Both the position numbers and the translations under genes were made by a program. A model generated the notes under the pieces. That model saw only the letters and a program-made list of their open reading frames with translations. It made no database searches and was not told the DNA's origin. Positions 3,501-37,794 of a stretch of DNA of 37,935 nucleotides are shown piece after piece (within the stretch, counting starts at the first letter, position 1; each line of letters begins with the position of its first letter). The stretch lies in the IMG/VR virus record IMGVR_UViG_3300036546_000028, positions 1 through 37,935 of that record; one strand, 5' to 3'. This stretch comes from a virus. Lineage: Duplodnaviria > Caudoviricetes.

Positions 3501-3874
3501 AGCACCTTCGCTGCCTTCAGGAACTTTCCGGCACCGACGAAGCCAGCAACAAACTGGGTAACGTCCCTGGTGATGTTTCCGGCTACAGTATTCGTTTCGA
3601 TGTTACCGAGTGTCATCCACTCAGGTGTTTCATCGTCCAGGAGGTCTTCGTCAATGAAGTCAGAGGCCCCTTCAACGATGTCATAGCCGAAGTTTATTGT
3701 TTCCTGGGCGGCGTCACGGATACCACCAATGACGCCTTTCCCCATGTCTATTGCGTAATCGATGAGACCAGGGTCGCCCTCGACGTTGACATCTACTGAT
3801 GGAGTGTCAGCGGGTTCAGGCGGCAGAAGCCCATCCTCACGCATTTTATCGTAGTCGATGACGACCTTCGCCAT
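551..3874 (-). CDS. Large internal virion (ejection) protein, gp16-position
   Basis: 1107 aa, helical and Ala/Gly-rich. Synteny: last internal virion protein before the tail fibre. Confidence 0.75.
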   Translation of the reverse strand: MAKVVIDYDKMREDGLLPPEPADTPSVDVNVEGDPGLIDYAIDMGKGVIGGIRDAAQETINFGYDIVEGASDFIDEDLLDDETPEWMTLGNIETNTVAGNITRDVTQFVAGFVGAGKFLKAAKVLQGAGKGMSLARGMVQGAMADTVVMDPHQERLSNLIEQYPSLQNPITDYLAADQNDSAAEGRLKNALEGIVLGAATDGFVASLKAMKKGATHLAGKVGKEAQEQILKEGVEEADEAVKKIATGDTELARIERRELETGIAIDGDEKARAIARQEIATRPDVDVEGIKEHLLKAAKGEANPDMESRFFNFEKMESAADSMKAMKVIEDNIADDVIEQAGGVKKLEEIKEEALNDLAEMVGEDRDTLAATLGQTAEGVHELSRKLVAGKMLLQGYTTEIAQVAKRINLKPTEADQLRLVKLIDQASEFQRSLKVIQTEAARATTAGRIATWDAIKTADIDLINDTLQKVGGPQRVQRFARMLEAAGNDPKAMNKLLSKGWKGKLFDVSMEYYINALLSGVKTHVVNLLNAAKTVSMPVEKMVGSIGRGGIDKEMFMEGQRQLISMHKFLGDAWHMAGKALRMEENILDPMHKVQDAPMYAITSQNLGVQEGWKASFVDGLGQVVRIPSRLLMASDEFFKQLNYRSHLYSEIYSRGQRLELKGEALQKYIDKEFAQYLTENNELPAAASLQWARKSTYTQDLEYGIGKWLQQGASQHPTLRIILPFIRTPTNIIRDVVDHTPVVARMTKRWSGAMAEGGERAALAKGAERVGGMLWASGFMLAANGMITGGGPKDTNLRQNLIRSGWQPYSFKFGDTYVSFERADPWGSFFGLAADLHEIGQEMTDAELGELAGMMITAVSRNITSKTYLRGLVDVINAFNEPERKAQYWANNFVSSWVPFSSGMTMMRNGVDPNMREVWSVVDAIKNRIPGYSDNLPARHDWLTGEPISYGGAFSRTVNPFTVWQDKNDPVLDELVRLGHGFTAPPKKLSSGGGEVELDSSQYSEFCRLHGTVRIGRYTLHERLEKLMKSNAYDINRERYADSSDEYTSRRVVMVRKWITAYRKVAQRELLDNHPELAAQLRKSRSEAVRAKRGNPVQELINYGK

Positions 3875-3877
3875 TGT

Positions 3878-5692
3878 TTACTCCTGTTCTATTCTTATGT
3901 ACTGCTCAAGTCCGAGAGCCTGTGCTTGCTGTGCGATATAGGCGTTCACATTGTTTACTCCAGCTTGCTGTGCCAGTGTTGTCAGCGCAGCTACGTCGCC
4001 GTCACTATAAGCGTTAAGAGCCTGGATAAACTGGTCTCTCGAAAGCTCTTGCCTGATGGTCTGCGGTGATTCAACAGGACGTCGTGTACCGTCTTCGTTC
4101 TGGAACCTCTTCATCTTGAGGATGTCCTCTTCAAGCTCGTAGGCTCTCAGGCGTACCTCACGAGGCGACGGGGTGTTTCCATTGTGTTCCTCGGTGTACT
4201 GGTCCATCCATGACATGAGACTGTCGTGGAAGTAGTTCCTGGCCTCTACTGCCCGAAGTTGGTTCTCAGGAGACACCAGTCCAGCTTCATCAGCCATGCC
4301 AACGACACGGTAGATGTCGTTCGCCACACCATTGACGGCACTGTCGCGCAACTGGTTCTCGTAGCGCATGGTGGAGTCGTAGTCGTCCATCAGTGCCTTG
4401 AAGGTTGCGTAATCGTATTTCGTCATCAGGCCCTCACGTATTTCATCAGGCGAGATGTCGAACTGGGCAATCCTGAGACGGTAGTCGGCTGCGGTCTGTA
4501 GAGACTCATCGTTCATGGTGAACTTAGTGGATTGTGCAGAAATGACGCGATCCTGAAAGCCAATCATGGAACGTGCTTTGGCAGGGTCCAGACGGGTCAA
4601 CTGGCGATACAGATCGTTCTGCGTGTAGTCAGCCGCAGGGTTATCAAGCATCTGCATCTGTATTTGTGACATCAGGCTGTTTGCCTGTTGTTCCTTCACG
4701 TGCGCTTCACGGCGTCTCTCGAAATCCCACTGCTTGATCTGCTGGTTCTCAATAAGGTCTTCGATTTGTTCTCTGATTTTAGCGCCGTAGCCACCTCCAC
4801 CGAGTGTTGCGATAGGTTCGCCTTTTTCGTTCCTGGCGGTGACTACGTAGTCAAGTGTTTGCATTATTTCAGCGTTATTGTACTCACGCGCAACAGAGGC
4901 AAGCTCATCGACAACCAACCTGTTCGCTTCAGTGGCAGACAGGCCGTTGGCGATCATCTCGTCAAGTTGTGTCTGTATTTGCGAGGCAAGCCCACGTGCT
5001 GACTGAACGATGCCAGAAGAGGTTTCCCAGTCACCAGACAGGCTGTACTTATCTGCCATCCGGTTGACAAAACCGCCGAGTTCCGTTTTTGCCCTCTCGG
5101 TGTTTGCCGCCATACGCCACTGGTTATGTCTGGAGAGGATTGAACTGAGAGCCTGGTGCATAGGCTTCTGGAGACCTTCTGCAAGCAGGTCGTCATCAAG
5201 CTTGCTTTCCCCGAACTCACGTTCCATCCACTGCTTGGAGAACTCATTCATGCCCTTGTTGAGAGCGGTAAGGTCGTTCGGGTCAACCTTATTCCGGTTA
5301 TCCTCCCACCAGCCGTTAAGTTCAGACTCAAAGTCCAGACCTTTGTTCTGGAGCCAGGCCAGGGTGTATCCACGCTGGAGATGAGGGTTGGCACCTGCAA
5401 AATCAGGGTTGGCCTCTGTGAACGCCTTCCAGTCCATTCGGTTCTTCTGAAAAAGGGCGACACCCTCGGCAAGCTGGTCGGATTTCCACTCCTCGTGTTT
5501 ACCATCGAGGAAGCGGGTCAGTTTAGGTTCTACGGTAGAAAGGGCCTGGGCAAGCTGTGACCAAGCCCCTGTTTTCATGTCAGGACGCCCCACAATGTTC
5601 GGAAGCTGGCGCACGTAGCTGTCTGCTGCACGAGCATTGACTGTGGGGCGAAGTCCCTGTCGCTGTTGGAGTTGCTGTACTACACGAGCCAT
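3878..5692 (-). CDS. Internal virion protein, gp15-position
   Basis: 604 aa, helical. N-terminal QLAQALSTVEPKL motif typical of this position; synteny. Confidence 0.7.
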   Translation of the reverse strand: MARVVQQLQQRQGLRPTVNARAADSYVRQLPNIVGRPDMKTGAWSQLAQALSTVEPKLTRFLDGKHEEWKSDQLAEGVALFQKNRMDWKAFTEANPDFAGANPHLQRGYTLAWLQNKGLDFESELNGWWEDNRNKVDPNDLTALNKGMNEFSKQWMEREFGESKLDDDLLAEGLQKPMHQALSSILSRHNQWRMAANTERAKTELGGFVNRMADKYSLSGDWETSSGIVQSARGLASQIQTQLDEMIANGLSATEANRLVVDELASVAREYNNAEIMQTLDYVVTARNEKGEPIATLGGGGYGAKIREQIEDLIENQQIKQWDFERRREAHVKEQQANSLMSQIQMQMLDNPAADYTQNDLYRQLTRLDPAKARSMIGFQDRVISAQSTKFTMNDESLQTAADYRLRIAQFDISPDEIREGLMTKYDYATFKALMDDYDSTMRYENQLRDSAVNGVANDIYRVVGMADEAGLVSPENQLRAVEARNYFHDSLMSWMDQYTEEHNGNTPSPREVRLRAYELEEDILKMKRFQNEDGTRRPVESPQTIRQELSRDQFIQALNAYSDGDVAALTTLAQQAGVNNVNAYIAQQAQALGLEQYIRIEQE

Positions 5693-15560: not shown

Positions 15561-15581
15561 CTTATCAAGTGCGTCTTAATT
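15561..15581 (-). promoter_or_regulatory. Phage RNAP promoter (late/structural)
   Basis: AATTAAGACGCACTTGATAAG, a variant of the repeated 21-mer, at the start of the structural block. Confidence 0.85.
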
Positions 15582-16025
15582 ATTCACACGGTGGATGCAT
15601 TGGTTGGCAGACGCCAGTTGCACACCGTGCAGGACGTAATCTTCCACTTTATGATTCGCGTCGTAACGCCCTGTTTTAACACAAGAACAATAGCGCAGGA
15701 TGCTTTCAGGAACCTCGTCTATTTCCCTGCGTGTGAATAGCCAGACAGGACGAAGGCCCTGAAGGAAAGCCAGAAGCTCCTCCAGGGCCTTGTGATCCTG
15801 GTCCAGCGGTTCACCGCCGAGAACCCAGACAGCCTTGATGAGGTCAGGAAAAGCGTTCACCTTATGCCTGATCTCGTCGAGGATATGGGGTGTGATTGGA
15901 TTTCCCTGGTTGAAATCCCATGTTTCAGGATTGTGACACCCAGGGCAGTGAGGGCCTTTGCATCCGGCGAGGTAGAGTTCCAGCGCGTTATGCTTGAGGC
16001 TGAACTCAGTCGCCAGTATGTTCAT
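15576..16025 (-). CDS. nrdG: Anaerobic ribonucleotide reductase activase (radical SAM)
   Basis: GC....CPGCHNPETW, LGGEPLDQ and SANQ motifs; next to nrdD. Confidence 0.9.
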   Translation of the reverse strand: MNILATEFSLKHNALELYLAGCKGPHCPGCHNPETWDFNQGNPITPHILDEIRHKVNAFPDLIKAVWVLGGEPLDQDHKALEELLAFLQGLRPVWLFTRREIDEVPESILRYCSCVKTGRYDANHKVEDYVLHGVQLASANQCIHRVNN

Positions 16026-16046
16026 ACTACTCCCACGGACAGTCTA

Positions 16047-16226
16047 TTAAAGTCCCCCCCACCACTGTTTCCATCCGTGTTTTGTGAACAGTTTCTCAGT
16101 GATATTAAGGCGTCGCCATCCTTCACCGAAACAGATCAACGGCAGAAACATGATGTAAACAAGTGTGAAACATATGAAGAGAAAGGACCACACTGTCCTG
16201 ATGGTCGCCTTCTTGACTTTCTCCAT
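16047..16226 (-). CDS. Small membrane protein (59 aa)
   Basis: Hand-translated MEKVKKATIRTVWSFLFICFTLVYIMFLPLICFG...WKQWWGGL; AAGGAGG SD; fills the nrdD-nrdG gap. Confidence 0.65.
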   Translation of the reverse strand: MEKVKKATIRTVWSFLFICFTLVYIMFLPLICFGEGWRRLNITEKLFTKHGWKQWWGGL

Positions 16227-16229
16227 TAT

Positions 16230-18146
16230 TTACACCTCCTTGTAGAACTGTCTGTTAGGCCAGTCGTGTTCACGACGTACCTTGTGCCAGTTCTTGGTGT
16301 TCGTCAAGAAGCCGACGACACGTGTGTATTCTTCAACGATCTTGTCCCCACATATTGTACAGAACGGTTCCTTACCAACCGTCATGTGCCCTTGTGCGCA
16401 CTGCTTGAGGGCATAGTTGATGGCCCAGTAGACCACTCCCTGCTTGGCGCAGGATTTGATGAGGTCCACGATCTTCTCAGGGTCTTTGATACGCTCGGCC
16501 ACGTTCAGGTGACAGATGGCACCACCGGAGAAGTGACGGTCGAACAGTCCCTGGAGACGTATTCGGTCTAGCATGTCCGCCTTTACAATCAGTGGTATGA
16601 ACTGGTTTGAGTAGTACGGATGGCCGCAGTCGTAGCCCATCAGTTCATCCTTCGCTGCCAGCTTGATACTGGAGTTCTCGGCAGGAACCTGTTCGCAGTT
16701 GTGTGGCGCATTGAACACGCCTTCCATAGCGTCGTTGGTGGCGTTGATGCACTTGAGTATCTTGAGGACGAACTCCTGCCCTTCATCGGTAAGGATGTCG
16801 TAGCCCATGATCGCACAACACTCGTACAGACCAGTGACACCACAGGTGCTGTACTGCTGCTTCAGGTCCATGAAGCCGAGATCGTAGAGCGGCAGTACAC
16901 CGTCACGGATGCGTTTTGACAGGAACGTGCGCTTGGCGTTGTTTACTCCAGCAGCGACACGTACCAGTGCAGCGAGATCAGCGAAGAAGGTCGATTCATC
17001 TGCTCCTCTCTGCTGTGCCTTCATAGCCAGTCTCGGAAGGTTCAACGTGACCACACCGAGGGAGCCGATCTTGGACGAACCAGCACCGAAGCTGTTGAAG
17101 TATTCGCTCTTGCGGTCTGAGCGCAAACGACAGCAACTTGAGAGCGTGGAACTGGGACCACAGTAGATGTTGATGAAGCCGAACTCGCAGTTTGCTTCGG
17201 CAACCTCTCTTGCGAACTCCTCGTCCTGAATGTTTCCGTCATCGTCCACTGCGAAACAGGCGGTCGTTACAGGAAACGTCAGAGGCGCACGTCGAAGCTC
17301 CTCGTTCATCACCTTGAGGAACTCTTTCTGCACATTCCACACGGTTTCAATGGCCGGAGACTTACCGTCGACGATATACTCCGGCACCATCTCTTTCAGA
17401 AACTCCCTGTCGTAGACACTCACGTTCGTGAAGGGTGACTGGTTTCCACGGAACTGCCAGTTGAGCGTGTAGACCAGTGAGGCCAGCACCTCGTGTACGT
17501 AGCTCCAGGCATCAGCCTGAGTTGCAAAGGTGTAGTGATGGTCACGGAAAGTACCGTCCTCCTGGGACATGTTGTCCACGTACCAGGATATCATGATAAG
17601 CAGATCAGCAAGGCCGGTAGCACCAAGCGTCGAGTTGGCTGCATAGACAGTGAACTGCTCCACCTGTCGGATGAACGCATACAGCGACTTCGGCGGCACA
17701 GGCTTCACCTTGTCGCCCATCTGAAGGCCGCCAAGGGCAATGTCATAGGTCGAATAGTTGAAGCAGTACGGGCGGCCTACGTCCCAGGCATCGTTGATGT
17801 AGATGTCACCAGTGATCTGCATCTCGATGATCTGGTTCGCAGTCTCAAGCCCGTGGGCTTTCTTCAGGTATTTCCAGAGGTTGTAGTAGGAGTTAAGCTT
17901 CTTGAGAGCTTTATCGATCTCGAAGTTGTAGTTGATGACCGACTTGTCAGCCACGTTAGCGTTCGAGTCGATGCTCGTGTCGGCGACAGCAGCGACGTTG
18001 TTGAAGAAGCTCTTCGACGCCTCGTGCATGTCCAGCTTTCCCAAGCCAATACCGTCGATGTCGAACAGTTCGGCAGGATACTTAGCACGAAGGTGCATCA
18101 TCAGGTCGCAGAACTCCTGGGGATATGAGTGTCCAACGTAGAGCAT
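16230..18146 (-). CDS. nrdD: Class III (anaerobic) ribonucleotide reductase
   Basis: QSPFTN, LTFPV, SSCCRL, GSLGVVTLNLPR, QVPAEN, C..GH....C..CG zinc site and YTRVVGFL glycyl-radical loop. Confidence 0.95.
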   Translation of the reverse strand: MLYVGHSYPQEFCDLMMHLRAKYPAELFDIDGIGLGKLDMHEASKSFFNNVAAVADTSIDSNANVADKSVINYNFEIDKALKKLNSYYNLWKYLKKAHGLETANQIIEMQITGDIYINDAWDVGRPYCFNYSTYDIALGGLQMGDKVKPVPPKSLYAFIRQVEQFTVYAANSTLGATGLADLLIMISWYVDNMSQEDGTFRDHHYTFATQADAWSYVHEVLASLVYTLNWQFRGNQSPFTNVSVYDREFLKEMVPEYIVDGKSPAIETVWNVQKEFLKVMNEELRRAPLTFPVTTACFAVDDDGNIQDEEFAREVAEANCEFGFINIYCGPSSTLSSCCRLRSDRKSEYFNSFGAGSSKIGSLGVVTLNLPRLAMKAQQRGADESTFFADLAALVRVAAGVNNAKRTFLSKRIRDGVLPLYDLGFMDLKQQYSTCGVTGLYECCAIMGYDILTDEGQEFVLKILKCINATNDAMEGVFNAPHNCEQVPAENSSIKLAAKDELMGYDCGHPYYSNQFIPLIVKADMLDRIRLQGLFDRHFSGGAICHLNVAERIKDPEKIVDLIKSCAKQGVVYWAINYALKQCAQGHMTVGKEPFCTICGDKIVEEYTRVVGFLTNTKNWHKVRREHDWPNRQFYKEV

Positions 18147-21380: not shown

Positions 21381-21541
21381 TACAGCTTCTCTCCCTTCTT
21401 TAAGGCTTTCCACCAATCTCGATAAACCTCGTGCAGCGGTTCTTCCTTCCACAGTTCACTCACAGCTACCCACAGCCAGTAGAAGGGGAGAACAGGAGCG
21501 AAACAAACGCAGAACACACGGAACTTGATACGGTCCAGCAT
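21380..21541 (-). CDS. Small membrane protein (53 aa)
   Basis: Hand-translated MLDRIKFRVFCVCFAPVLPFYWLWVAVSELW...; TAATG overlaps at both ends; GGAGG SD. Confidence 0.7.
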   Translation of the reverse strand: MLDRIKFRVFCVCFAPVLPFYWLWVAVSELWKEEPLHEVYRDWWKALKKGEKL

Positions 21542-22311
21542 TAGATCACCTCCGGAACCATATAACCACGCTTGCAGAGAGCCTGAATCATGAACTTTGC
21601 ACCAGCGGGTGTGAAGTCGTAGTCAACTCCGGTACGCGCTCCTTCACGGTCTACCACCAGACTTGCACGGTAGGCGTTAGAGGTGGGAACGTATCGCATT
21701 TCAAAGTCCCACACGCCGCCACAGTCTTTTTTCACGAGGAGACCTTCTGCCATTGCCACTGCACGGAAGGTGGTGTAGGAGACCTTCAACATGCCAGCCA
21801 GCACAGTCGGCTTGAACCGCTGCATTTCACTGGTGAGGTTGTCGGTGCAGATGACCTTGGGTTTTGCTTCGGCAAGCTGCTTGTTCTTCTCAGCGATCTC
21901 CAGGTTCTTCTGCTCGATGATGTCGGCCATCTCACGGAGGAACTCAGGTGATGCCACGTTCTTGTTGATGTAGGCACCGTGCTTGCGGATGGAAGGCAGG
22001 ACTTCGGAAGTCACCCACTTCTTGAACTTCTTGGCTTCCGGTTTGCGGGACCGGAGGACCAGGGAGTACAGGCCGGATTCGTTGATGATGGAAACCGCAC
22101 GAACCTGATCCGTATACTGTACGGGGCAGGTCGAACGCTCATCATCATCCAGCAGTTTCGAGAGGTTGCTGGTATCAATAGTAAGCGCGTCACACACGTC
22201 CTTGGCGACGAACCAGATTTCACCGTCGTTACCCTTAAGAACGCGGATAACGCCAAACATTTCGTGATTGAACTCAGCCGGTACCATTTCGTTAAACTTG
22301 TTCTCGCTCAT
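21541..22311 (-). CDS. BRO-N domain antirepressor-like protein
   Basis: WFVAKDVCDAL, INESGLYSLVLRSRKPEAKKFKKWVTSEVLPSIRKHGAY, coiled coil then AKPKV. Confidence 0.9.
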   Translation of the reverse strand: MSENKFNEMVPAEFNHEMFGVIRVLKGNDGEIWFVAKDVCDALTIDTSNLSKLLDDDERSTCPVQYTDQVRAVSIINESGLYSLVLRSRKPEAKKFKKWVTSEVLPSIRKHGAYINKNVASPEFLREMADIIEQKNLEIAEKNKQLAEAKPKVICTDNLTSEMQRFKPTVLAGMLKVSYTTFRAVAMAEGLLVKKDCGGVWDFEMRYVPTSNAYRASLVVDREGARTGVDYDFTPAGAKFMIQALCKRGYMVPEVI

Positions 22312-22451: not shown

Positions 22452-22472
22452 CTTATTCAGTGCGTCTTAATT
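22452..22472 (-). promoter_or_regulatory. Phage RNAP promoter
   Basis: AATTAAGACGCACTGAATAAG, identical to the copy at 32774-32794. Confidence 0.9.
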
Positions 22473-23047: not shown

Positions 23048-23763
23048 CGTTAGTGTTCAAGGAGGGACGCCACACCCTCCCCCGCGCCTTTACGCGCTGC
23101 TTACTGTCACCAGTAAGACCAGACTATATCATCACCCTAATAGGGGCCACGCGCTTCGACCGACAGTAGCTTTCGGCCTACTCCTTTCGGATAGTCGTTG
23201 CACCTTCCAAATACTGAATAGCCGTTGATAACGCCTCCGTGTTATCATTAAACAAACCGAGTGCGCGGTTACAGTTGTGACGCAACAGTCCACGTACTTT
23301 ACCTGTTACATGACAATGATCTACCACCAGCTTTATCTTGTGGCGTTCCTTGTTCATAAGGAAACCTTCACCTCCACAAATAGCGCAACGGTGATTCTGC
23401 TTTTCAAGCATCTCTTTATAGTCAGTTAACGAGATGCCGTATGTGCGTCTTAGATAATTGTCTGTGTGCACTTGCTCTGTGCATTCGTCAGAGCAATACA
23501 AGTGAGACGGGGCAAGCGGTTCAAACATCTTGCCGCACAAGCGACAAGGTTTAGGATTGAACCGTTTCTGAGGATATTTAGCAGGACGTGCTGTATAAGA
23601 ATCAGCACCAGGGTTGCCACGAGCGTACAAATGTAGCTACCTCCTTTGGAGGCGTTTCGTGACATTCAGTATTTGGCTTGGCTCAGGATTGTCTCAATGA
23701 GAGTTTCCCTGAGTTCACGTGGTTTTTGTCATCCAAGTTACCTTGGAAGTCATCCGTGCTTTC
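23048..23763 (-). mobile_element. Group I intron (716 nt, IA2-like) in the DNA polymerase gene
   Basis: Exon ends in U and intron ends in G. P1 UCAUCU/GGAUGA; P2 UCCAAG/CUUGGA; CUCAGG/CCUGAG pairing in the P4-P5 region; R GCAACGACUA; S GAUAUAGUCU; P7.1/P7.2 and P9/9.1/9.2 hairpins. Splicing gives KRFI-Y-AFLYGAG (1351+536=1887 nt, 628 aa). Confidence 0.95.
23178..23630 (-). CDS. Intron-encoded endonuclease VII-type (His-Me/HNH-related) homing endonuclease
   Basis: YGISL..Y..ML..Q..RCAIC, VVDHCHVTGKVRGLL..NCN.ALG; N-terminal C..C/CS..C zinc finger; TTG start after AGGAGGT. Confidence 0.85.
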   Translation of the reverse strand: MYARGNPGADSYTARPAKYPQKRFNPKPCRLCGKMFEPLAPSHLYCSDECTEQVHTDNYLRRTYGISLTDYKEMLEKQNHRCAICGGEGFLMNKERHKIKLVVDHCHVTGKVRGLLRHNCNRALGLFNDNTEALSTAIQYLEGATTIRKE

Positions 23764-25114
23764 AGATGAATCGTTTCGCGATCTTGTTACGTGCCCAGTT
23801 GTGGTGGTCGTTATCTTCGTCGCGCTCGGTACCTTTAGCCACCAGTCCCAAAGCCTGGGTGTTCGCCCAGTGGATGTCACCGTTCAGGATCACTTCCACG
23901 TAGGCACCGCCGTCATACTTTGCGACGTAGTGCCCCAGGCAACGAAGCTCCAGGCCGGATGCGTCACACCCCACCACCACGTAACCAGGAGGAGCGTGAA
24001 AGAGTTCCCTGCACTCATGGCCGTAAGGGACGCCTACACTCGGCACCTGGGCCACGTTAGGTGTGGAATGGGTGCATCTTCCTGTCACTGCGCCGTTGGT
24101 GATGACACGTCCGTGGATGCGCCCGTTGCGCTCCAGCTTGAGCCACCCGTTCTTTCCTTCAGCAACCTGTCCGATACGCTTCTCAACCATCAGGTATTCA
24201 TTCAGGAGCTTCGCCTCTGGGTAGTCCAGTGTTTTGAGAATCTTTTCTGATACTTCCGGCTGTCCGGCAGGAGTGAATTGCGTAGGCTTCCATCCGTATC
24301 TCTGCTTGAGCCTGTCAGCTATCTGCTGTCTGCTACCAGGATTGAACGGGACGATCTTCACCTTCTCTGTTGGGACGCCTTTAACGTATCCAAGCTTCCT
24401 GTTGTTTGCCTTGGGGACGAACGGTGTCCTTACCTCTTGCGGAGGGAACACACTCTGGAGTTCCTGTTCAATCGCCAGTCTGCGCTGTACAAGCGTAGCG
24501 TAGAGTTCCTGTGCCTTCTGAGTACGGAAAGGAAAACCGAACACTTCCTGAAGGTTCAGTATAAGTTTGAAATCATGCTCCAGTTTGATGGAACGCTTGC
24601 TGTATTCCTTCGCAACGATCTTCTGCCAGAGCAGGTCTGTAACTTCGACGTCCTGTTCACAGTATGCTTGCATCTCAGGAGACCAGTGTTGCCAATCGGT
24701 CGTCTTACCGAACTCTCCTTTACGGTCTCCCAAACGGTAGCCCCATGCTTCGAGTTTGTGCGAACCGATGAGGTTCTTAGGGAACCATTTGTGTTTTCTG
24801 GCGAACCTGAAGTCACGGTCTTTCAGGTCGGGCCATATGAGGCGGGTGCAGACAATTGTGTCTATGATCTCGCCACGTGGAGACCACCCAGGATAAATCT
24901 TGGCAATGGCAGGTATATCGAAGTCGATGATGTTGTGACCTATGATGAGGTCTGCGTATTCAAGTTTTTCCAGTGCCTCCTCAAGACACACCTCGGCTCC
25001 ATGATCGTGGGCAGAGATGCGCTCCTGTGTCACAGGGTCTTTCATACAGAGCGAGTGCATGGTGTCCGTGACATCAAGAAGGCCATTCGTTTCGATGTCG
25101 AACACATAGGCCAT
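23764..25114 (-). CDS. DNA polymerase (family A, gp5-like), exon 1
   Basis: FDIETNG exonuclease motif, GHNIIDFD, YCEQDV, TGRCTHS.PN..QVP, DASGLELR (motif A), DIH; start at MAYVF after GGAGG. Confidence 0.95.
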
Positions 25115-28530: not shown

Positions 28531-28552
28531 ATCATATCCACTTATGGATGTT
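28531..28552. promoter_or_regulatory. Operator-like site
   Basis: ATCATATCCA-CTTA-TGGATGTT, immediately upstream of the SSB SD. Confidence 0.7.
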
Positions 28553-30131: not shown

Positions 30132-30153
30132 ACATGGCAAACTTGGATATGAT
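30132..30153. promoter_or_regulatory. Operator-like site
   Basis: Reverse complement ATCATATCCA-AGTT-TGCCATGT, between the RNAP stop and a phage promoter. Confidence 0.7.
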
Positions 30154-32720
30154 TAGGCAAAAAAGAAGTCCGACTTCAGCACCTTGGTGATGTCGAGGGT
30201 GCCTCTTTCAGGCATAGCCGGAATCTCTACAGCCGCCTCTTCTCCAATCATTTCCAACACATCTGCACGGAACTCAGCGAGAACGTCATGTTCTGTAAAC
30301 ATATTCACGAACACTTCGCGCAGGGTACGTGCCATGAGTGCAGCATCTGCGGCAGGGACGCCGTAGCTGTCATGCACCATAGCGAACGAGTGGATGCCAC
30401 GATGTGTTGCGTCGTAGACCGTCTTCATAAGCGCGGCTGCGTCCAGAGAGTGGACAAAGTTCGGGCTGATGCCGTTTGCCTGCCGCCTTTTGTCGATCTG
30501 GTCTGTTTCTTCCACCAGTGTGAGGTCGATTCTGGTGCCCTCACCGATGTGTGTCTTGATGCGTTTCTTCTTTATGTCAGGGTATGCCTGAAGCACAGGG
30601 AACCCGACAGGAGTTTTCCACGTTACAGGGAGACCTTCACGCGTAACGACACGTGCCACCTTCTGGAGCCAGTCCATAGCCTGACGTGCAGCGATGACCG
30701 TTTCACCGATGGCTTCCCATATGAGCTTCGACAGGAAGTTCGACGGCACGAACAGCTTGTCTCCCCAAGGGTGAAGCCCAGATATGTCAGCCTTAGGGCC
30801 GTGAACAGAACGGTATTCCTCCTCTTTGTCCCTGATGTACTGTTCAGTGTACTCACGGCAGGAGAACACCGTGCCACCGTAAGGCAGCACCATGACCTGC
30901 CGCTTGGTGGTTTTGCGGTTGATACCGAAGTCCAGCCACTGCTGTGCCAGTGCGACTTCCTCGTCGGAATAGTTGGCAATACTGGATGTGATAAGACGCA
31001 ACTTTGCCAATACCTTATCAGCGACAACCTGATAAATGTCGGCTGGCTTCTCGGAAGGCAGCAGGTTCACAGCCTCACCGCCTACCTCATCCCGCAGCAT
31101 GAGGCTGAATATCTGGAGGCCGTTGCAGGAGCCATCCATTGCGACCGGAAGACAGCTTACATAGCCGTAGCCATCCCTCACGAATCCTGCCCACTCGAAG
31201 CAGAATGCGAGGAACTGCCACGGTTTGTCTGCGTGTGCCCATTCGGTGACATCGAGCGGGTTGTCAGCAATGGCGAGAATCATTTCCTCGTGCTCCTTTA
31301 CCCACTTGTAACGGTCGTCCAAGCTGCACTTGTCCTCGCCCCACACGTTGGCACCGTGAATAGCCAGCCAACGGGCAGCTTCCTCGTCAACGATAGGCTT
31401 ACCGTCTGCAAACAGGAGGAGGCCCTTTGAAGCGTCGTTGCCTTGCGGGTTGAGGTACTTCGGTACTGCGTAGATGCGCCCACGGAAATCCAACTGGTGC
31501 GGGAAGTAAATACGAGGGTACTTTGCATACTTCTCTGCAATCCAGATGACCTTTGCAGCTTGCAGCCGCTTGGAGAACAGGCTGTGATTGCGTACATGGA
31601 CAGCCCTGGCAGCTCTTCTCCATTCACGGAGTGTGTTATACTGGTCGTCAGTCCATGTGTCCCTGTCTTCAGGCATCGTGGGCGGCGTGGGCACAGGCTC
31701 GTCGTCACGTGCAGGGAGACCGCCCATGTTCCCTCCGCTGTCCCAGATTTCACGCATTACATCCAGCACCTTTACGTTCACCTTGAAGGCAGTCTCTTGA
31801 AGTGCATTGATGGCATCGTAGACAATTGGCATCTCGTCAACGCGGTTTGAAAGTTCCTCAATGTACTCAGCGTGGCGTGTCTTCACCATCTTCAACTGGG
31901 GGACGGCTTGGGTGTAGTATCCGCCTTTAGTCGCAGTTGTCCAAGGGCGCGGCGGAACGACGCAGGGCATGTACACCGGAGACAGCAGCTCACAACGCGC
32001 CATGCGCCTGTTAATCCACTCCATGCACTCCTGCGTAGGCTGGATGTGTATAGGCGTGTTCTTCTTACCTCTGGACTCATCTGTGTACGTCTGGAACAGG
32101 CCGGTAGAAGCTATGCACAGGTCAATGAGCTTGAGACCAAGCTGGACCTTGTGCGTTTTAGACCACGGCTCCCACTCAATGCCCTGTTTGTGCATGTAGT
32201 GAACCATGACACGCGTCTTGCGGAAGGTGGTGCTGTATTCGTCCGCTTCATCACGTGCCCTATCGTATGCGTATTTGTTTTCTGCCCTGAATTTCGCAAG
32301 GCGGCACTCGTCCTCGATGGATGTGCCGATGCCGTATGCTACGTTCTGCATGGTCTTATTCACAGCGATGCAATCGAGGATGATCTTGATCGTGAGAAAC
32401 GCAGCGATCTTAGGGTCAACCTGACGGAGATACTTGAGTGCGATATGTCTGCGTCCTGCCTTTCCTGTAGCCTCTTTGATGAAATTTTCTATAGCCTCTC
32501 CGAAGACGGGAATAGTGGATGCCATCATTGCCGTGCCGTAATCTGTGCGGGATTCTCTGCCCTTCTCACGGCTCTTCTGGATACGTGAGCGGTACGCTTC
32601 GATGCCCATGCCCTGCATTTCCTGTTCGAGCTTGACCTGTTCAGCCAGCATGTCATCGTCAAGGTCAGTCACCATGTCCAGAGCGTGAGCCAGTACACTT
32701 TCTTTCAGCTTATCTTCCAC
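30153..32720 (-). CDS. Single-subunit T7-like RNA polymerase
   Basis: DFRGRIY, AMDGSCNGLQ (A), R...KRQVM..PYG (B), PNFVHSLDA, VHDSY (C). Confidence 0.99.
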   Translation of the reverse strand: MEDKLKESVLAHALDMVTDLDDDMLAEQVKLEQEMQGMGIEAYRSRIQKSREKGRESRTDYGTAMMASTIPVFGEAIENFIKEATGKAGRRHIALKYLRQVDPKIAAFLTIKIILDCIAVNKTMQNVAYGIGTSIEDECRLAKFRAENKYAYDRARDEADEYSTTFRKTRVMVHYMHKQGIEWEPWSKTHKVQLGLKLIDLCIASTGLFQTYTDESRGKKNTPIHIQPTQECMEWINRRMARCELLSPVYMPCVVPPRPWTTATKGGYYTQAVPQLKMVKTRHAEYIEELSNRVDEMPIVYDAINALQETAFKVNVKVLDVMREIWDSGGNMGGLPARDDEPVPTPPTMPEDRDTWTDDQYNTLREWRRAARAVHVRNHSLFSKRLQAAKVIWIAEKYAKYPRIYFPHQLDFRGRIYAVPKYLNPQGNDASKGLLLFADGKPIVDEEAARWLAIHGANVWGEDKCSLDDRYKWVKEHEEMILAIADNPLDVTEWAHADKPWQFLAFCFEWAGFVRDGYGYVSCLPVAMDGSCNGLQIFSLMLRDEVGGEAVNLLPSEKPADIYQVVADKVLAKLRLITSSIANYSDEEVALAQQWLDFGINRKTTKRQVMVLPYGGTVFSCREYTEQYIRDKEEEYRSVHGPKADISGLHPWGDKLFVPSNFLSKLIWEAIGETVIAARQAMDWLQKVARVVTREGLPVTWKTPVGFPVLQAYPDIKKKRIKTHIGEGTRIDLTLVEETDQIDKRRQANGISPNFVHSLDAAALMKTVYDATHRGIHSFAMVHDSYGVPAADAALMARTLREVFVNMFTEHDVLAEFRADVLEMIGEEAAVEIPAMPERGTLDITKVLKSDFFFA

Positions 32721-32773
32721 TTTAGTTCTCCTTTAGGTTCCCTATAGTTTCCCTTTAGACGCTCCCTGTACTG

Positions 32774-32794
32774 CTTATTCAGTGCGTCTTAATT
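32774..32794 (-). promoter_or_regulatory. Phage RNAP promoter directly upstream of the RNAP gene
   Basis: AATTAAGACGCACTGAATAAG, about 54 nt before the GTG start. Confidence 0.88.
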
Positions 32795-32820
32795 ACAACT
32801 TCCTGAAACCACTACGAATA

Positions 32821-32842
32821 ATCATATCCAAAGTTGAGTCTC
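32821..32842. promoter_or_regulatory. Operator-like site
   Basis: ATCATATCCA-AAGT-TGAGTCTC, 26 nt upstream of the phage promoter. Confidence 0.65.
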
Positions 32843-32898
32843 ACCATTTGCACCAATTCAGGCCCCAATTAAATCCCATGTGAGAATTTTTAACGAGG

Positions 32899-32919
32899 AA
32901 TTAGGGCGCACTCATACGA
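32899..32919 (+). promoter_or_regulatory. Divergent phage-promoter-like site
   Basis: AATTAGGGCGCACT matches the consensus 14/14, then CATACG instead of GAATAAG; opposite orientation to the other copies. Confidence 0.6.
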
Positions 32920-32972
32920 GCGCACCAATAAATTGGGACAAAATTGGTACTGGGCTGTACCAACTGAAAAAT

Positions 32973-32994
32973 CCCATGCATTTGTGGGTATGAT
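32973..32994. promoter_or_regulatory. Operator-like site (variant)
   Basis: Reverse complement ATCATACCCA-CAAA-TGCATGGG. Confidence 0.45.
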
Positions 32995-33033
32995 AAAATA
33001 AAAAGAAAGGGACCAGCCGTTAAGCCAGTCCCT
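32995..33033 (-). terminator. Intrinsic terminator between the tRNA and the RNAP gene
   Basis: AGGGACTGGC-TTAACG-GCTGGTCCCT followed by TTCTTTTTATTTT. Confidence 0.85.
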
Positions 33034-33049
33034 GCGGGGTTTTGTGTGC

Positions 33050-33071
33050 TGTATTCAGGAGTGGATGTAAT
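33050..33071. promoter_or_regulatory. Operator-like site (variant)
   Basis: Reverse complement ATTACATCCA-CTCC-TGAATACA. Confidence 0.45.
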
Positions 33072-33141
33072 GTGTGCGGGTTTTACGTCAGATTTTAAAT
33101 CAATTTTTGGTACTGAATTGTACCAATTTGATGTTGGTCTG

Positions 33142-33230
33142 TGGTGCCGGAGGTGGGATTCGAACCCACACGATCAATAATGATCTTCGGATTTTAAGTC
33201 CGATATGTCTACCTGTTCCATCACTCCGGC
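33142..33230 (-). tRNA. tRNA-Leu (anticodon UAA)
   Basis: GCCGGAG/CTCCGGC acceptor stem + ACCA, anticodon arm TCGGA-CTTAAAA-TCCGA, long variable arm, T arm GTGGG-TTCGAAT-CCCAC. Confidence 0.95.
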
Positions 33231-33340
33231 GAATCCCTTGTATCCACTCTTTTCAGCATTCGATTGGTACAAATTGGGACAAATTGGGGCAGATTGGGGA
33301 TGTACCAAAAAGAATGAAAGCACACAAGATTTAATTTAAA

Positions 33341-34414
33341 TTAACCGTTTGCGACAGCACCCCACCTGCTGCCTCTTTCCTCCAGAACGGCTACGCAGGA
33401 GTCAAGGTCAGTTGGCGCAAGGTGCCCGTACCTCATGGTGGTCTGGATGCAGGTGTGTCCCATCCACCTCATAACGTGCGGCAGCGGGGTTCCTCCCTGC
33501 ACCATGCGGGAACAGCAGGTATGCCTGAGCACATACGGGATAAACTGCGGGTCATTCTCAAAGCCCAAGATAGCCCGTACACGGTCCCAACCATTGCGGA
33601 ACCATCCGTTATCATAGGGGAACAGGCGTTCGTCCTCGTACTCTTTCATACGACGGGCGATGATCTCCTTTACCCTTTTTGTCATTGGGATGGAGCGCGG
33701 GATGTCCGTCTTGTTCTGCCATATGGCAATCTTAGACGTGGCCCAGTGGATGTCCTTACCACGTAGGTTCCATAACTCACTCATGCGCATTCCGGTGTCT
33801 ATGAAGACCACGGTCGCATCGTAGTGGTCGTGCTTTTCAAGCTGTTTCATGGTTGCGAGAAGGCGAACCTCTTCCTCATCAGTGAGAAAGCGGATACGTC
33901 CCTTCCCTTCTTTCCTACGGGACAGCTTCGGCTTGACCTTCATCTTCCCGCGCTCAATGGCGCATGACATAACTTTAGACAAGGCAGACAACTTGCGGTT
34001 GATAGTCGCGTTGCTGTTTCCGATCTCTTGGAGCCATTCCACGTATTCGTCTATGTCATCCGTGGTAATGGTATGGATTGCCCTGTCTTCTCCGAAGTGC
34101 CGGAGAGCGAACCTTATGTTTTTAAGTGCTGCGGTTTCGCCTCGCGTCCCCTTCCAGTATGTTGTGTGGGTACGGTCGACAGCCTCTTGAAGCGTCCACG
34201 TATCTTCTGGAGCGCGTTCTGGTACTCTGGATTGAACTTGTGGGCCTTCGTATGCATTCCCTGAAAGCATGGCCTCTTTTAGTTCTGCTTGTTTCTCCAT
34301 TGCTTCGACAAGTGTCTCACAAGTGACATACTTCCGTTTCCCATTGTGATACACATTGACTAAGAACTTTTCCCCTCTTCTGCGGATACCTCGTGGAAGT
34401 CTCGATTTTCCCAT
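33341..34414 (-). CDS. int: Tyrosine recombinase / integrase
   Basis: ATINRKLSALSK, DTGMRMSEL, K, YVLRHT, MGH..IQTTMRY; N-terminal arm-binding-like segment. Confidence 0.95.
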   Translation of the reverse strand: MGKSRLPRGIRRRGEKFLVNVYHNGKRKYVTCETLVEAMEKQAELKEAMLSGNAYEGPQVQSRVPERAPEDTWTLQEAVDRTHTTYWKGTRGETAALKNIRFALRHFGEDRAIHTITTDDIDEYVEWLQEIGNSNATINRKLSALSKVMSCAIERGKMKVKPKLSRRKEGKGRIRFLTDEEEVRLLATMKQLEKHDHYDATVVFIDTGMRMSELWNLRGKDIHWATSKIAIWQNKTDIPRSIPMTKRVKEIIARRMKEYEDERLFPYDNGWFRNGWDRVRAILGFENDPQFIPYVLRHTCCSRMVQGGTPLPHVMRWMGHTCIQTTMRYGHLAPTDLDSCVAVLEERGSRWGAVANG

Positions 34415-34452
34415 AGCACCTCCTTATCATTCGCAAAACCATTCCCGCACAA

Positions 34453-34779
34453 TCATTCAATCGCTTCCAGTCGTTCAGCGAGGCGTTGCCCCTTAGATGT
34501 CAGTTTGATGATTTTCTGACGCCAGTCGTCAGGGTCAATCTCCGTTGTGACGAGTCCCAATCCCTGCTTATTCTTATTCCAGTGGTGATCTGAAAGAGCC
34601 GCTACCTGTCTGCTTGTTGCAGACTGTGGAAGATCGAGAAATGTCGCAATCTCCTTCATGGTTGCGCCTTCTTTGCCCTTCTTAGCAATGAACAAGAAAG
34701 TGAGGCATAGGCGGAGAGGCATAACAGGGTCTAGAACGTAGAACTGTTTCACCGCGTCAAACGTACTGGATAATTTCAT
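34453..34779 (-). CDS. MarR-like winged-helix regulator (putative repressor)
   Basis: TMKEIATFLDLPQSATSRQVAAL...GLV....DPDDWRQKIIKLTSKG; ATG after AAGGAG; adjacent to the integrase. Confidence 0.85.
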   Translation of the reverse strand: MKLSSTFDAVKQFYVLDPVMPLRLCLTFLFIAKKGKEGATMKEIATFLDLPQSATSRQVAALSDHHWNKNKQGLGLVTTEIDPDDWRQKIIKLTSKGQRLAERLEAIE

Positions 34780-34790
34780 TTTAACTCCTT

Positions 34791-34985
34791 TTATAAGATT
34801 TTCTGCGGACACCACGTTGGTGGCGTATAAATGATAAGGGTTTTACGGAAGTACAGAACGTACTCGCCATCTCTATGCTCAAAGTAGCAAGCCCTCGGGC
34901 ATTTTACAACCGAATTTGTTTCTAAGTATAAGCTCCCCAAGAGTGGTACAGAAGCGTAGAAGTAGCGGCTTTTGGCAGAACTCAC
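34791..34985 (-). CDS. Hypothetical protein (64 aa)
   Basis: GTG start after a strong AAGGAGG SD; first gene of the repressor/integrase block. Confidence 0.65.
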   Translation of the reverse strand: MSSAKSRYFYASVPLLGSLYLETNSVVKCPRACYFEHRDGEYVLYFRKTLIIYTPPTWCPQKIL

Positions 34986-35041
34986 TGAAATTCCTCCTTT
35001 TTAGAAGTACAGGGTAACGCTTGATTAATTTCGGAGAAGGA

Positions 35042-35070
35042 ATTAATAAGCATCCAAAATGTGATGTCAA
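35042..35070 (-). promoter_or_regulatory. Putative sigma70 promoter for the repressor-integrase block
   Basis: Perfect TTGACA, then TATTAAT 16-17 nt downstream; the spacer holds an operator half-site TGGATG. Confidence 0.5.
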
Positions 35071-35156
35071 TATTGTTTTCTTTCGTCTACCTACATACTC
35101 TCATTCGGAGCCACCAGACGTGGCCTGATGACTCCTCGGAGGGTATGAGGGTTATA

Positions 35157-35414
35157 TTATGCCGCGTTCAGTGCTTCCCATGTAATATCCTGAAATGTGC
35201 CGTCAGGATTACATTGAACAGCCTTGAACATACCGCTGTCACCTTCAGCGCATCTTCCGGCTGTACTTAGAACATCCAGAAGATCGGCGAGACCTGTGTA
35301 GTCTGTATATGTCCACGTGCTTGGTACAATGTGAAGCGCGTTATTACGCATTGCTTCATCTGCATTCGTGTACTCGCTGCGGTAAATCCCAAGAACGATT
35401 TCGGAAGTAGTCAT
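35157..35414 (-). CDS. Hypothetical early protein
   Basis: AAGGAG SD, 85 aa, co-oriented with neighbours. Confidence 0.65.
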   Translation of the reverse strand: MTTSEIVLGIYRSEYTNADEAMRNNALHIVPSTWTYTDYTGLADLLDVLSTAGRCAEGDSGMFKAVQCNPDGTFQDITWEALNAA

Positions 35415-35537: not shown

Positions 35538-36077
35538 CTAGTTACGCCAGAAAACATAGAACTCGCCGTCTTCACCGTGTTCGCCGTACATATCCGTAAT
35601 GAACAAGTCTCGGGCAAACTTTTCATAATCGAAGTAGTTCCTGACGGTATCCGGTACGTTGTTGAGGTGGCCAAGCTCGTCTATCAGCTCGTAAGCAAAG
35701 TCCACTTCATCCTTGTACGTTCCGCGATAACTATCCTCGAAGTCACTTTTATTCGCGTATTCGCTTCCAACGAAGCCGACATACACTCGCCAAGCCTCGC
35801 CGTATTCTTCCAGCATTTCAGCGTGTTTGATAAATGTCTCAAAGTCATCCCATTCGCCTAAACCTAAGCCGTGAAAGCCTTCGTAGTCATGCACAGCCCA
35901 TTCTTCCGCTTTATCGCCATATTCCATTGCCGAAGGCGATTCGGCCAGCATTTCATTTACTTCGTCCATCACGTCTTCAACCGTTGTTGATCCGTCTATA
36001 TCAATCCAACGTCCGTGAAGGACAGCTTTGTTATAGTCTGAAAGGCTTGCAACGTAGATTCTGTACTCACTTGTCAT
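35538..36077 (-). CDS. ardA: Antirestriction protein ArdA
   Basis: IYVASL..YN...LHG.W, EEWAVHDYEG, NYFDYEKFARDL; highly acidic. Confidence 0.93.
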   Translation of the reverse strand: MTSEYRIYVASLSDYNKAVLHGRWIDIDGSTTVEDVMDEVNEMLAESPSAMEYGDKAEEWAVHDYEGFHGLGLGEWDDFETFIKHAEMLEEYGEAWRVYVGFVGSEYANKSDFEDSYRGTYKDEVDFAYELIDELGHLNNVPDTVRNYFDYEKFARDLFITDMYGEHGEDGEFYVFWRN

Positions 36078-37585: not shown

Positions 37586-37607
37586 ATTATATCCACTATT
37601 GGATTCG
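37586..37607. promoter_or_regulatory. Operator-like site
   Basis: ATTATATCCA-CTAT-TGGATTCG, near-palindromic. Confidence 0.6.
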
Positions 37608-37765: not shown

Positions 37766-37794
37766 AAAGTATCCAAGCTTGCCAAGTATGTCAA
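37766..37794 (-). promoter_or_regulatory. Host sigma70 early promoter with overlapping operator-like site
   Basis: TTGACA-N17-TACTTT with an upstream A-tract; the spacer and -10 contain AAAGTATCCA-AGCT-TGCCAAGT. Confidence 0.8.

Follow-up and report, generated by a model that had tools for sequence, protein, structure and literature searches.

A temperate T7-like phage cassette in which integration is predicted to separate the phage RNA polymerase from host-type promoters

Introduction

How does a self-amplifying T7-type RNA polymerase (RNAP) stay off in a prophage? The published model, that of phage LUZ100, comes without mapped operators or an attachment site (PMC10134795). We addressed the question in IMGVR_UViG_3300036546_000028, a single virus record of 37,935 bp analysed here over its full length (the window), whose T7-like genes lie on the minus strand and include a tyrosine integrase gene (int) and an RNAP gene. 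An earlier note on this DNA had proposed that integration itself rewires the circuit by recombination between the early operon and RNAP. We find that the attachment site (att) lies between int and RNAP in seven of eight integrated relatives and that integration of the window phage is likely to separate RNAP from host-type promoters. On balance we favour a cassette in which integration locks the silent state rather than deciding it.

Results

Layout of the cassette

The cassette occupies the minus strand throughout and runs from a sigma70 promoter through a small open reading frame (ORF), marR, int, tRNA-Leu, a terminator and an autopromoter to RNAP. Its protein-coding part and leading promoter are as follows (pLDDT, predicted local distance difference test).

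35042..35070, minus strand: predicted sigma70 promoter for the operon of small ORF, marR and int (and tRNA), TTGACA-16/17-TATTAA/ATTAAT, 10/12
34791..34985, minus strand: small conserved gene, predicted five-strand beta protein (homolog counts; model pLDDT 85)
34453..34779, minus strand: MarR-fold winged-helix regulator (PHROG 9665, E 4e-24)
33341..34414, minus strand: tyrosine integrase, intact (PF00589, E 1.7e-21)
30153..32720, minus strand: T7-type single-subunit RNAP (PHROG 414, E 5e-288)

The earlier note had given this order, and every part is present in it; its equation of the tRNA with att and its labelling of the intervening repeats as operators were not confirmed as written. The leading promoter (35070-35042) was not listed by a stricter promoter scan; the closest relative, the complete provirus G001 with the same cassette, has TTGACT-16-TAGATT at the matching place, and P3 of LUZ100 is the measured equivalent (PMC10134795).

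The MarR-like gene stands directly before int and upstream of RNAP. Its profile matches 38 PDB sequences, nearly all of MarR type, and its structural model (pLDDT 95.7) has MepR and MarR as top Foldseek matches (E 4.5e-5, probability 1.00); the Pfam MarR_2 score of 26.2 bits falls slightly below the cut-off of 27. The gene is likely to encode a repressor. Alignment of the integrase places its residues at R210, K235, Y294 (in place of His), R297, H320 and Y329. The small ORF has homologs at 47 of the 153 loci with at least 1.2 kb of upstream sequence, 45 of them with marR, and on these counts it is a real conserved gene. It has no clear family or fold in Pfam, NCBIfam, Atlas (best 0.84), Foldseek or VIA (best Z 4.7), a lack of match that is no evidence of a new fold.

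In 68 of 122 loci, whether marR is present or not, RNAP comes within 6 kb after int (duplicates kept, many loci truncated). The window phage carries a temperate T7-like lysogeny cassette of a common type, already described, which limits the surprise of its layout. No match to CI or Cro was found among the ORFs scanned, and the genes of the region are all co-oriented, so that there is no divergent cI/cro pair. To this extent the region is unlike the lambda switch, as the earlier note had it; the note overstated the novelty, since the feedback model, the place of the phage attachment site (attP) and the combination of promoter separation with an insulator are all in print.

Integration junctions and the attachment core

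Junctions were mapped in eight genomes that carry both genes on one contig in prophage order, by matching the sequence upstream of RNAP against that downstream of int. A junction between int and RNAP could be mapped in 7/8. The core lay within 1.5 kb in six (G002, G005, G405, G408, G409 and G413); in G152 the junction was a 23-bp tRNA end ~2 kb upstream, and G406 yielded no core in this comparison. The provirus G001 is permuted, beginning with RNAP and ending with int; because its record is cut at gene ends, it shows the att interval and not the core. The interval proposed in the earlier note, which had named junction mapping in integrated relatives as its check, is the one used by seven of these eight prophages and by G001.

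In five of the prophages (G002, G005, G405, G408 and G409) a core of 12-17 bp interrupts a host tRNA-Leu in its anticodon arm, and all five carry an intact phage tRNA-Leu of the same anticodon. This phage tRNA lies 6-20 nt before the core in four and upstream of int in G409; where it follows int, the core is outside it in 4/4. A short core that does not rebuild the host tRNA is thus seen in five relatives, and is predicted for the window at 33091-33101.

33142..33230, minus strand: tRNA-Leu(TAA) (ARAGORN, Rfam, cloverleaf fold)
33091..33101, minus strand: predicted attP core, a mimic of the tRNA-Leu(TAA) anticodon arm, GATTTAAAATC, placed from the relatives

We compared the window with free forms selected for the order int, tRNA-Leu, RNAP (n=27, window included). 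An anticodon-arm mimic occurs at most 150 nt after the tRNA in 14/27, where 1.2 were expected: ten of the 14 lie 12-14 nt after the tRNA, the window copy at 43 nt, and three are weak and reversed. The distance from mimic to U tract is 77-81 nt in 9 of the 13 forms with both and 91 nt in the window, and the window tRNA's own loop lies about 190 nt from the U tract. A core at the mimic is favoured over one in the tRNA loop because 91 nt is nearer to 77-81 nt than is ~190 nt, and we consider it the probable attP core. The split host tRNAs of the relatives likewise make a core 3' of the tRNA more likely than recombination at the tRNA, as the earlier note had it. The wiring is unchanged whichever of the two is used.

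The tRNA-Leu(TAA) of the window shares its anticodon with the TAA mimic and is probably a spare copy that replaces the broken host tRNA, not att itself. Between int and the tRNA we found no strong hairpin (z -1.25) and no good promoter, so the marR-int promoter is likely to serve the tRNA as well. In a host with one tRNA-Leu(TAA), survival of the lysogen would then be tied to transcription of the repressor operon.

A similar arrangement was seen at locus L190 (G044:C19), where the 5' half of a host tRNA-Leu(TAA) breaks off in the anticodon loop and, ~200 bp further on, an intact tRNA follows that is 86% similar to that of the phage; by its sequence L190 is another element using a replacement tRNA. 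LUZ100 (L002) has an unannotated tRNA-Leu(TAA) anticodon mimic at 3916-3930, a candidate attP, in a region (3805-3845, 3916-3930 and 3939-4055) with straddling repeats.

Terminator and promoters before RNAP

Two elements lie between the predicted core and RNAP.

32995..33033, minus strand: intrinsic terminator, predicted insulator at the left prophage attachment site (attL); 11-bp stem (33008-33033) and U tract
32774..32794, minus strand: phage-RNAP promoter directly upstream of RNAP, predicted autopromoter, identical to a copy at 22452-22472

The terminator folds with -17.3 kcal/mol (z -3.4). A terminator is present 65-76 nt inside attL in 4/4 prophages whose host tRNA points toward RNAP and in 0/2 in which it is reversed. 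Among free forms, a terminator follows 13/17 co-oriented and 3/6 reversed mimics, and some terminator is present in 10/32 without a mimic; these counts come from a crude detector and small numbers. Because presence at attL tracks the orientation of the host tRNA, the terminator fits the role of an insulator against the host tRNA promoter, in agreement with the earlier note.

The phage-promoter core occurs in six copies (five sense, one antisense) where 0.07 were expected, and phi1 of LUZ100 is the measured equivalent of the autopromoter (PMC10134795). Between the predicted attP core and RNAP the window has no good sigma70 promoter, the best candidate scoring 8 and overlapping the terminator. 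Integration is likely, on this sequence, to separate RNAP from host-type promoters in the window phage. The separation is not universal because G409 has a sigma70 site upstream of its terminator, between core and RNAP, and G005 keeps such a site with no terminator; the claim that RNAP is cut off from all sigma70 promoters is likely to hold for the window interval and fails for G005. The general geometry, with promoter and target at opposite ends of the element and an insulating terminator, matches that of Tn916 in relatives.

Two further observations concern these promoters. An extended -10-like site, TG-N-TAAAAT, at 32965-32999 (plus strand) points toward tRNA and int and overlaps a weak dyad at 32974. 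The promoter at 32774-32794 and that of G001 at 40096-40116 share an AATTA(A/G)(G)CGCACT-type core and differ downstream by one base of spacing (GAATAAG versus AGTAAG); the two phages possibly form a near-orthogonal pair of RNAPs and promoters.

Two classes of repeats

The earlier note had read the repeats before the autopromoter as repressor operators and gave no coordinates for them; we therefore examined both repeat classes of the region. Class A, TTGG[T/G][A/G]C, a pattern picked after viewing the region, has 12 of its 29 genome copies within 32800-33340, where 0.25 were expected.

33264..33308, unstranded: left cluster of class A repeats, likely integrase (Int) arm sites (repeat search, straddle test)
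33107..33126, unstranded: inverted pair of class A repeats adjoining the predicted core (repeat search)
32847..32868 and 32922..32963, unstranded: right class A clusters, likely Int arm sites (straddle test, 0/300 shuffles)

These repeats are mostly tandem 10-mers and not one dyad. In a straddle test that chose the best shared 6-mer afresh for each element, repeats lay on both sides of the core in 8/8 elements (shuffle p 0 to 0.043), among them ProddE, which has a CI-type repressor and no marR match. The arm sites of tyrosine integrases flank the core. Arm-type sites are so placed in mycobacteriophages (PMC10865867). Since the class A repeats straddle the core in all eight elements, once without MarR, they are likely to be integrase arm sites, and their reading as operators is not supported.

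Class B is a dyad with the ideal form TATCCA(A/C)-N2-(T/G)TGGATA. It fills the spacer of early sigma70 promoters in the window, in G001 and in LUZ100 P1/P2, and recurs in all three directly after the RNAP stop and before the SSB gene (for the protein that binds single-stranded DNA). With a matrix built on seven G001 and 12 LUZ100 sites, which is partly dependent as G001 is close kin, the window sites at 37589, 37769, 30133 and 28534 rank first to fourth.

37766..37794, minus strand: early sigma70 promoter TTGACA-17-TACTTT, whose spacer contains the dyad 37769-37786; same in G001 and LUZ100 P1/P2
37589..37606, unstranded: best-scoring dyad (rank 1), abutting TATAAT of a second early promoter candidate
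30133..30150, unstranded: operator-like dyad directly after the RNAP stop, before tandem middle promoters (rank 3)
28534..28551, unstranded: dyad upstream of the SSB gene (rank 4); like place in G001 (38665) and LUZ100 (6965)
33051..33068, unstranded: weak operator-like dyad between core and terminator (rank 12 with a window-trained matrix); LUZ100 3939 alike
32974..32991, unstranded: weak operator-like dyad just past the terminator (rank 14 with the G001 and LUZ100 matrix); LUZ100 3995 alike

A weak half-site lies at 32824. The dyad at the RNAP stop is also present in G409 and many marR-bearing relatives. Within 30 nt of the RNAP stop, and with the three training phages, near-duplicates and eight loci of unknown marR status excluded, dyad scores were higher in 32 loci with marR than in 12 without (Mann-Whitney p 0.002, uncorrected for kinship); scores of at least 5 occurred in 0/32 in a control window, and all 12 high-scoring dyads sat at offset 5-7 from the stop. 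The dyad also emerged from de novo word counts of the window, G001 and LUZ100, whereas the counts gave no clear dyad in G535, G536, G537, G152, G409 or G405. From these patterns the dyad is the likelier candidate for a MarR operator than the class A repeats. Because the interval before the autopromoter holds weak dyads only, the operators of the earlier note are best split into arm sites, which are strong, and operator candidates, which are weak in this interval and strong at the early promoters.

Two inverted dyad-like sites also lie inside the RNAP coding sequence (30972-31011), the first kept in G001 (40984), and LUZ100 has 13 dyad-like sites genome-wide, two of them in the P1/P2 spacers. 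We rejected the dyad as a sigma54 promoter (the gap from TGGCA to TTGC is 3 nt and not 6); its reading as a set of antisense sigma70 promoters was not supported, the following hexamer often not being TANNNT.

BRO gene and antisense promoter core

Two parts that the earlier note had included in the switch are not general among the relatives.

21541..22311, minus strand: BRO-N/KilAC antirepressor-like gene behind a phage promoter (profile matches)
32899..32912, plus strand: predicted antisense phage-promoter core toward tRNA, int and marR; its downstream bases differ from those of the sense promoters

The BRO gene has a tblastn match in 2/8 relatives and none in G001 or LUZ100, which does not fit a core part of the switch, and it is taken as accessory; in LUZ100 a KilA-N gene is present at another place. 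In the window the antisense core is real, but it is not general and was not found in LUZ100 or G409.

Genome, relatives and host

The T7-like set found comprises RNAP, gp2.5, endonuclease I, amidase, primase/helicase, DNA polymerase, exonuclease and head-tail connector. Our script reported no terminal repeat on the window, and ~6 kb of the late region of G001 has no match in it; the window is therefore probably part of a genome in the free, non-integrated state. Among named RNAPs that of LUZ100 matches best (46%). The closest integrase, P0003 (71% identical), which one source assigns to Desulfovibrio oxyclinae, matches the integrase of G001 at 100% identity; along most of its length G001 has 65-86% DNA identity to the window, and in RNAP 78%. 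The host is probably of Desulfovibrio type. Anaerobic ribonucleotide reductase genes (NrdD-like and activase; 15576-18146, minus strand) fit an anaerobic host.

One independent sequencing run contains a near-identical phage with an intact att region, and two well-covered runs contain the free form. Scans of viral contigs with the window integrase, the promoter pattern and marR returned 0, 0 and 1 distant locus; of two metagenome scans for close relatives, the first returned none and the second relatives of at most 47% identity. A second element in runs X3, X4 and X5 (partly X13 and X14) is ~98% identical to window 34151-35404 over the promoter, the small ORF, marR and the opening ~88 codons of int, and then runs on into unrelated sequence; it appears that recombination has passed the control module between elements, leaving the second with a truncated or exchanged integrase.

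Elsewhere, the DNA polymerase gene is interrupted by what is likely to be a group I intron (23100-23774, minus strand; Rfam RF00028, E 7e-9, 41 bits, under the 50-bit cut-off) that is absent from G001 and contains an endonuclease VII-type ORF (23178-23630). The early region carries an ArdA antirestriction gene (35538-36077, minus strand), also present in ProddE and Pasto.

Discussion

We propose the following working model. In the free phage, host RNAP would transcribe the cassette and leak slightly through the terminator into the RNAP gene, and phage RNAP would then amplify itself from 32794, as in the published LUZ100 model. For lysogeny, MarR would bind the dyads that lie within the spacers of the early sigma70 promoters and behind the RNAP stop, with weak binding around attP, and Int would bridge the class A arm repeats and recombine the mimic with the anticodon arm of the host tRNA-Leu(TAA). 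Integration would put terminator, autopromoter and RNAP at one end of the prophage and promoter, marR, int and tRNA at the other; with the halves so placed, the leak path would be cut and the terminator would block the host tRNA promoter. At the end of the marR-int operon, the tRNA copy of the phage would stand in for the one broken in the host, and induction would need both loss of MarR and excision to rejoin the leak path. Because integration follows Int expression, it is more likely to lock the silent state than to make the decision.

Several points weigh against this model. G005 has a sigma70-like CTGATA-16-TATAAT and no terminator between attL and RNAP, and no excisionase was found among the small ORFs of the window that were scanned. 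No integration junction of the window phage was seen in eight sequencing runs, in which contigs show presence only; searches of 401, 1 and 301 genomes turned up no host flanks of G001, and none were among 80 loci kept from a genome-contig scan. The window mimic has a stem of only 2 bp, stands 43 nt from the tRNA where 12-14 nt is usual, and its loop position 1 is T; an arm pattern of the T32 type matched in 6/301 Desulfovibrionaceae genomes (3' stems lay outside this comparison), and in one genome a tRNA is 90% similar to that of the phage and identical to it in the anticodon arm. Near the autopromoter the dyads are weak (ranks 12, 14 and 143), scores of at least 5 at the RNAP stop occur in 12/32 loci with marR versus 1/12 without (Fisher p 0.059, uncorrected for kinship), and Pasto and G152 lack a dyad after the RNAP stop.

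In one rival reading the crossover takes place in the anticodon loop of the phage tRNA itself (33190-33200), yielding two hybrid full-length tRNAs and leaving the mimic at 33091 as chance or relic, with the same wiring. A 35-bp exact match across the anticodon arm with the tRNA-Leu(TAA) of Desulfovibrionaceae genome L189, the atypical stem and offset of the window mimic and the 13/27 free forms without a mimic favour such a crossover. Against it stand the core-to-terminator spacing, the mapped prophages, in all four of which the core lies outside a tRNA that follows int, and L190, where a tRNA like the phage's adjoins a split host tRNA, so that such tRNAs can be element-borne. We regard it as rather unlikely. 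A weightier competitor, to which we give a minority share of belief, is that the place of att matters little: MarR alone would set lysogeny, the terminator would merely end the int operon, and integrated RNAP would restart through weak read-through or a weak promoter. G005 fits this, as do ProddE, which places a CI gene between att and RNAP, the generality of the int-then-RNAP layout irrespective of marR, and the strong dyads at early promoters and not at the autopromoter. Terminators that track host tRNA orientation in prophages, and 13/17 versus 10/32 in free forms, speak for the model proposed here, as do the lack of a good promoter in the window interval and the proof of the same logic in Tn916 (PMC11658703).

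The original reading makes the repeats between terminator and autopromoter the operators through which a repressor gates the autopromoter, and counts BRO and the antisense promoter among the core parts of the switch; it now seems improbable. Boeckman et al., as cited in PMC10134795, did propose MarR sites flanking the RNAP promoter, and the antisense core and the weak dyads of the interval are there; the repeats, however, also lie between int and tRNA, have the tandem form and core-straddling placement described above, even where MarR is lacking, and BRO is missing from the closest relative. Least probable of all, by a small step, is that integration is only transient and there is no stable lysogenic state. 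T7-like cyanophages integrate only transiently, a caution against equating integration with lysogeny (PMC8776855), LUZ100 gave no stable lysogens (PMC10134795), and both count against the locking model too; the free form in two well-covered runs points the same way. Yet the closest relative, G001, carries this cassette as a complete provirus, several full prophages stand in assembled genomes, and the cyanophages tested were reported to be without a repressor.

A broader version of the locking model is tentative, and we doubt it more than we believe it. MarR-type temperate T7-like phages might share an undescribed switch of three layers: a MarR dyad at early promoters and at the RNAP gene exit, integration that severs the only path seeding the self-amplifying RNAP, and tRNA dependence. 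A spare tRNA on the repressor operon would mean that the lysogen needs repressor transcription, and hence that induction goes via excision; the small beta protein would be the missing sensor, antiterminator or directionality factor.

What the analysis usefully adds to published systems is an operator map that separates arm sites from operators, although this map may be partly in print already. Its coordinates can be tested, also in cultured LUZ100, which offers 13 candidate dyads, the core mimic near 3916-3930 and arm repeats. By inference, tRNA-dependent lysogeny would extend to T7-like prophages of several bacterial groups.

Comparison with known systems

The layout and feedback model (LUZ100, pelagiphages), promoter separation with an insulator (Tn916) and tRNA-dependent lysogeny are each already published. 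Our literature search did not find the idea that integration severs RNAP for T7-like phages, Boeckman 2022 and supplements lying outside its coverage, and the part of PMC10142737 available adds nothing on the wiring. LUZ100 has the order P3, small ORF, MarR, int, terminator T4, phi1 and RNAP, with P3, T4 and phi1 measured and read-through, positive feedback and MarR repression proposed (PMC10134795). With the window it has in common the small ORF family, the dyad and the repeats that straddle the core, but in LUZ100 tRNA-Leu is placed on the opposite strand, between marR and int; the available text of the LUZ100 paper names no attP, 'attachment' or operator and does not discuss the effect of integration on the circuit. 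Pasto and ProddE are likewise temperate T7-like phages with int upstream of RNAP (GenBank records; PMC10134795). Pasto has a helix-turn-helix/MarR-like gene and tRNA-Leu, as the window does, and differs in the dyad after RNAP; ProddE differs in its CI-type repressor and annotated excisionase.

In HTVC019P-type pelagiphages attP lies between int and RNAP in all 12, with the core mid-tRNA; in HTVC011P and HTVC025P especially, a tRNA-Leu after int replaces the disrupted host copy, and the HTVC025P integrase has Tyr for His, as in the window (10.1101/410191). These phages have another host, and the available part of their description contains no regulatory model, operator or insulator. The mycobacteriophages with tRNA-dependent lysogeny use a short core at a host tRNA without reconstructing it and carry a phage tRNA of the same isotype; they are siphoviral actinophages, and the tRNA requirement is proven there and inferred here (PMC10865867). 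The closest functional parallel to promoter separation is Porf7/T1 of Tn916, where integration separates the main promoter from the downstream genes, a terminator at the element end insulates them from host promoters and excision rejoins the two (PMC11658703). Tn916 is an integrative and conjugative element with a dedicated antiterminator, canT, and has no autocatalytic phage polymerase; by analogy, the window cassette would work like Tn916 and is not of the same family.

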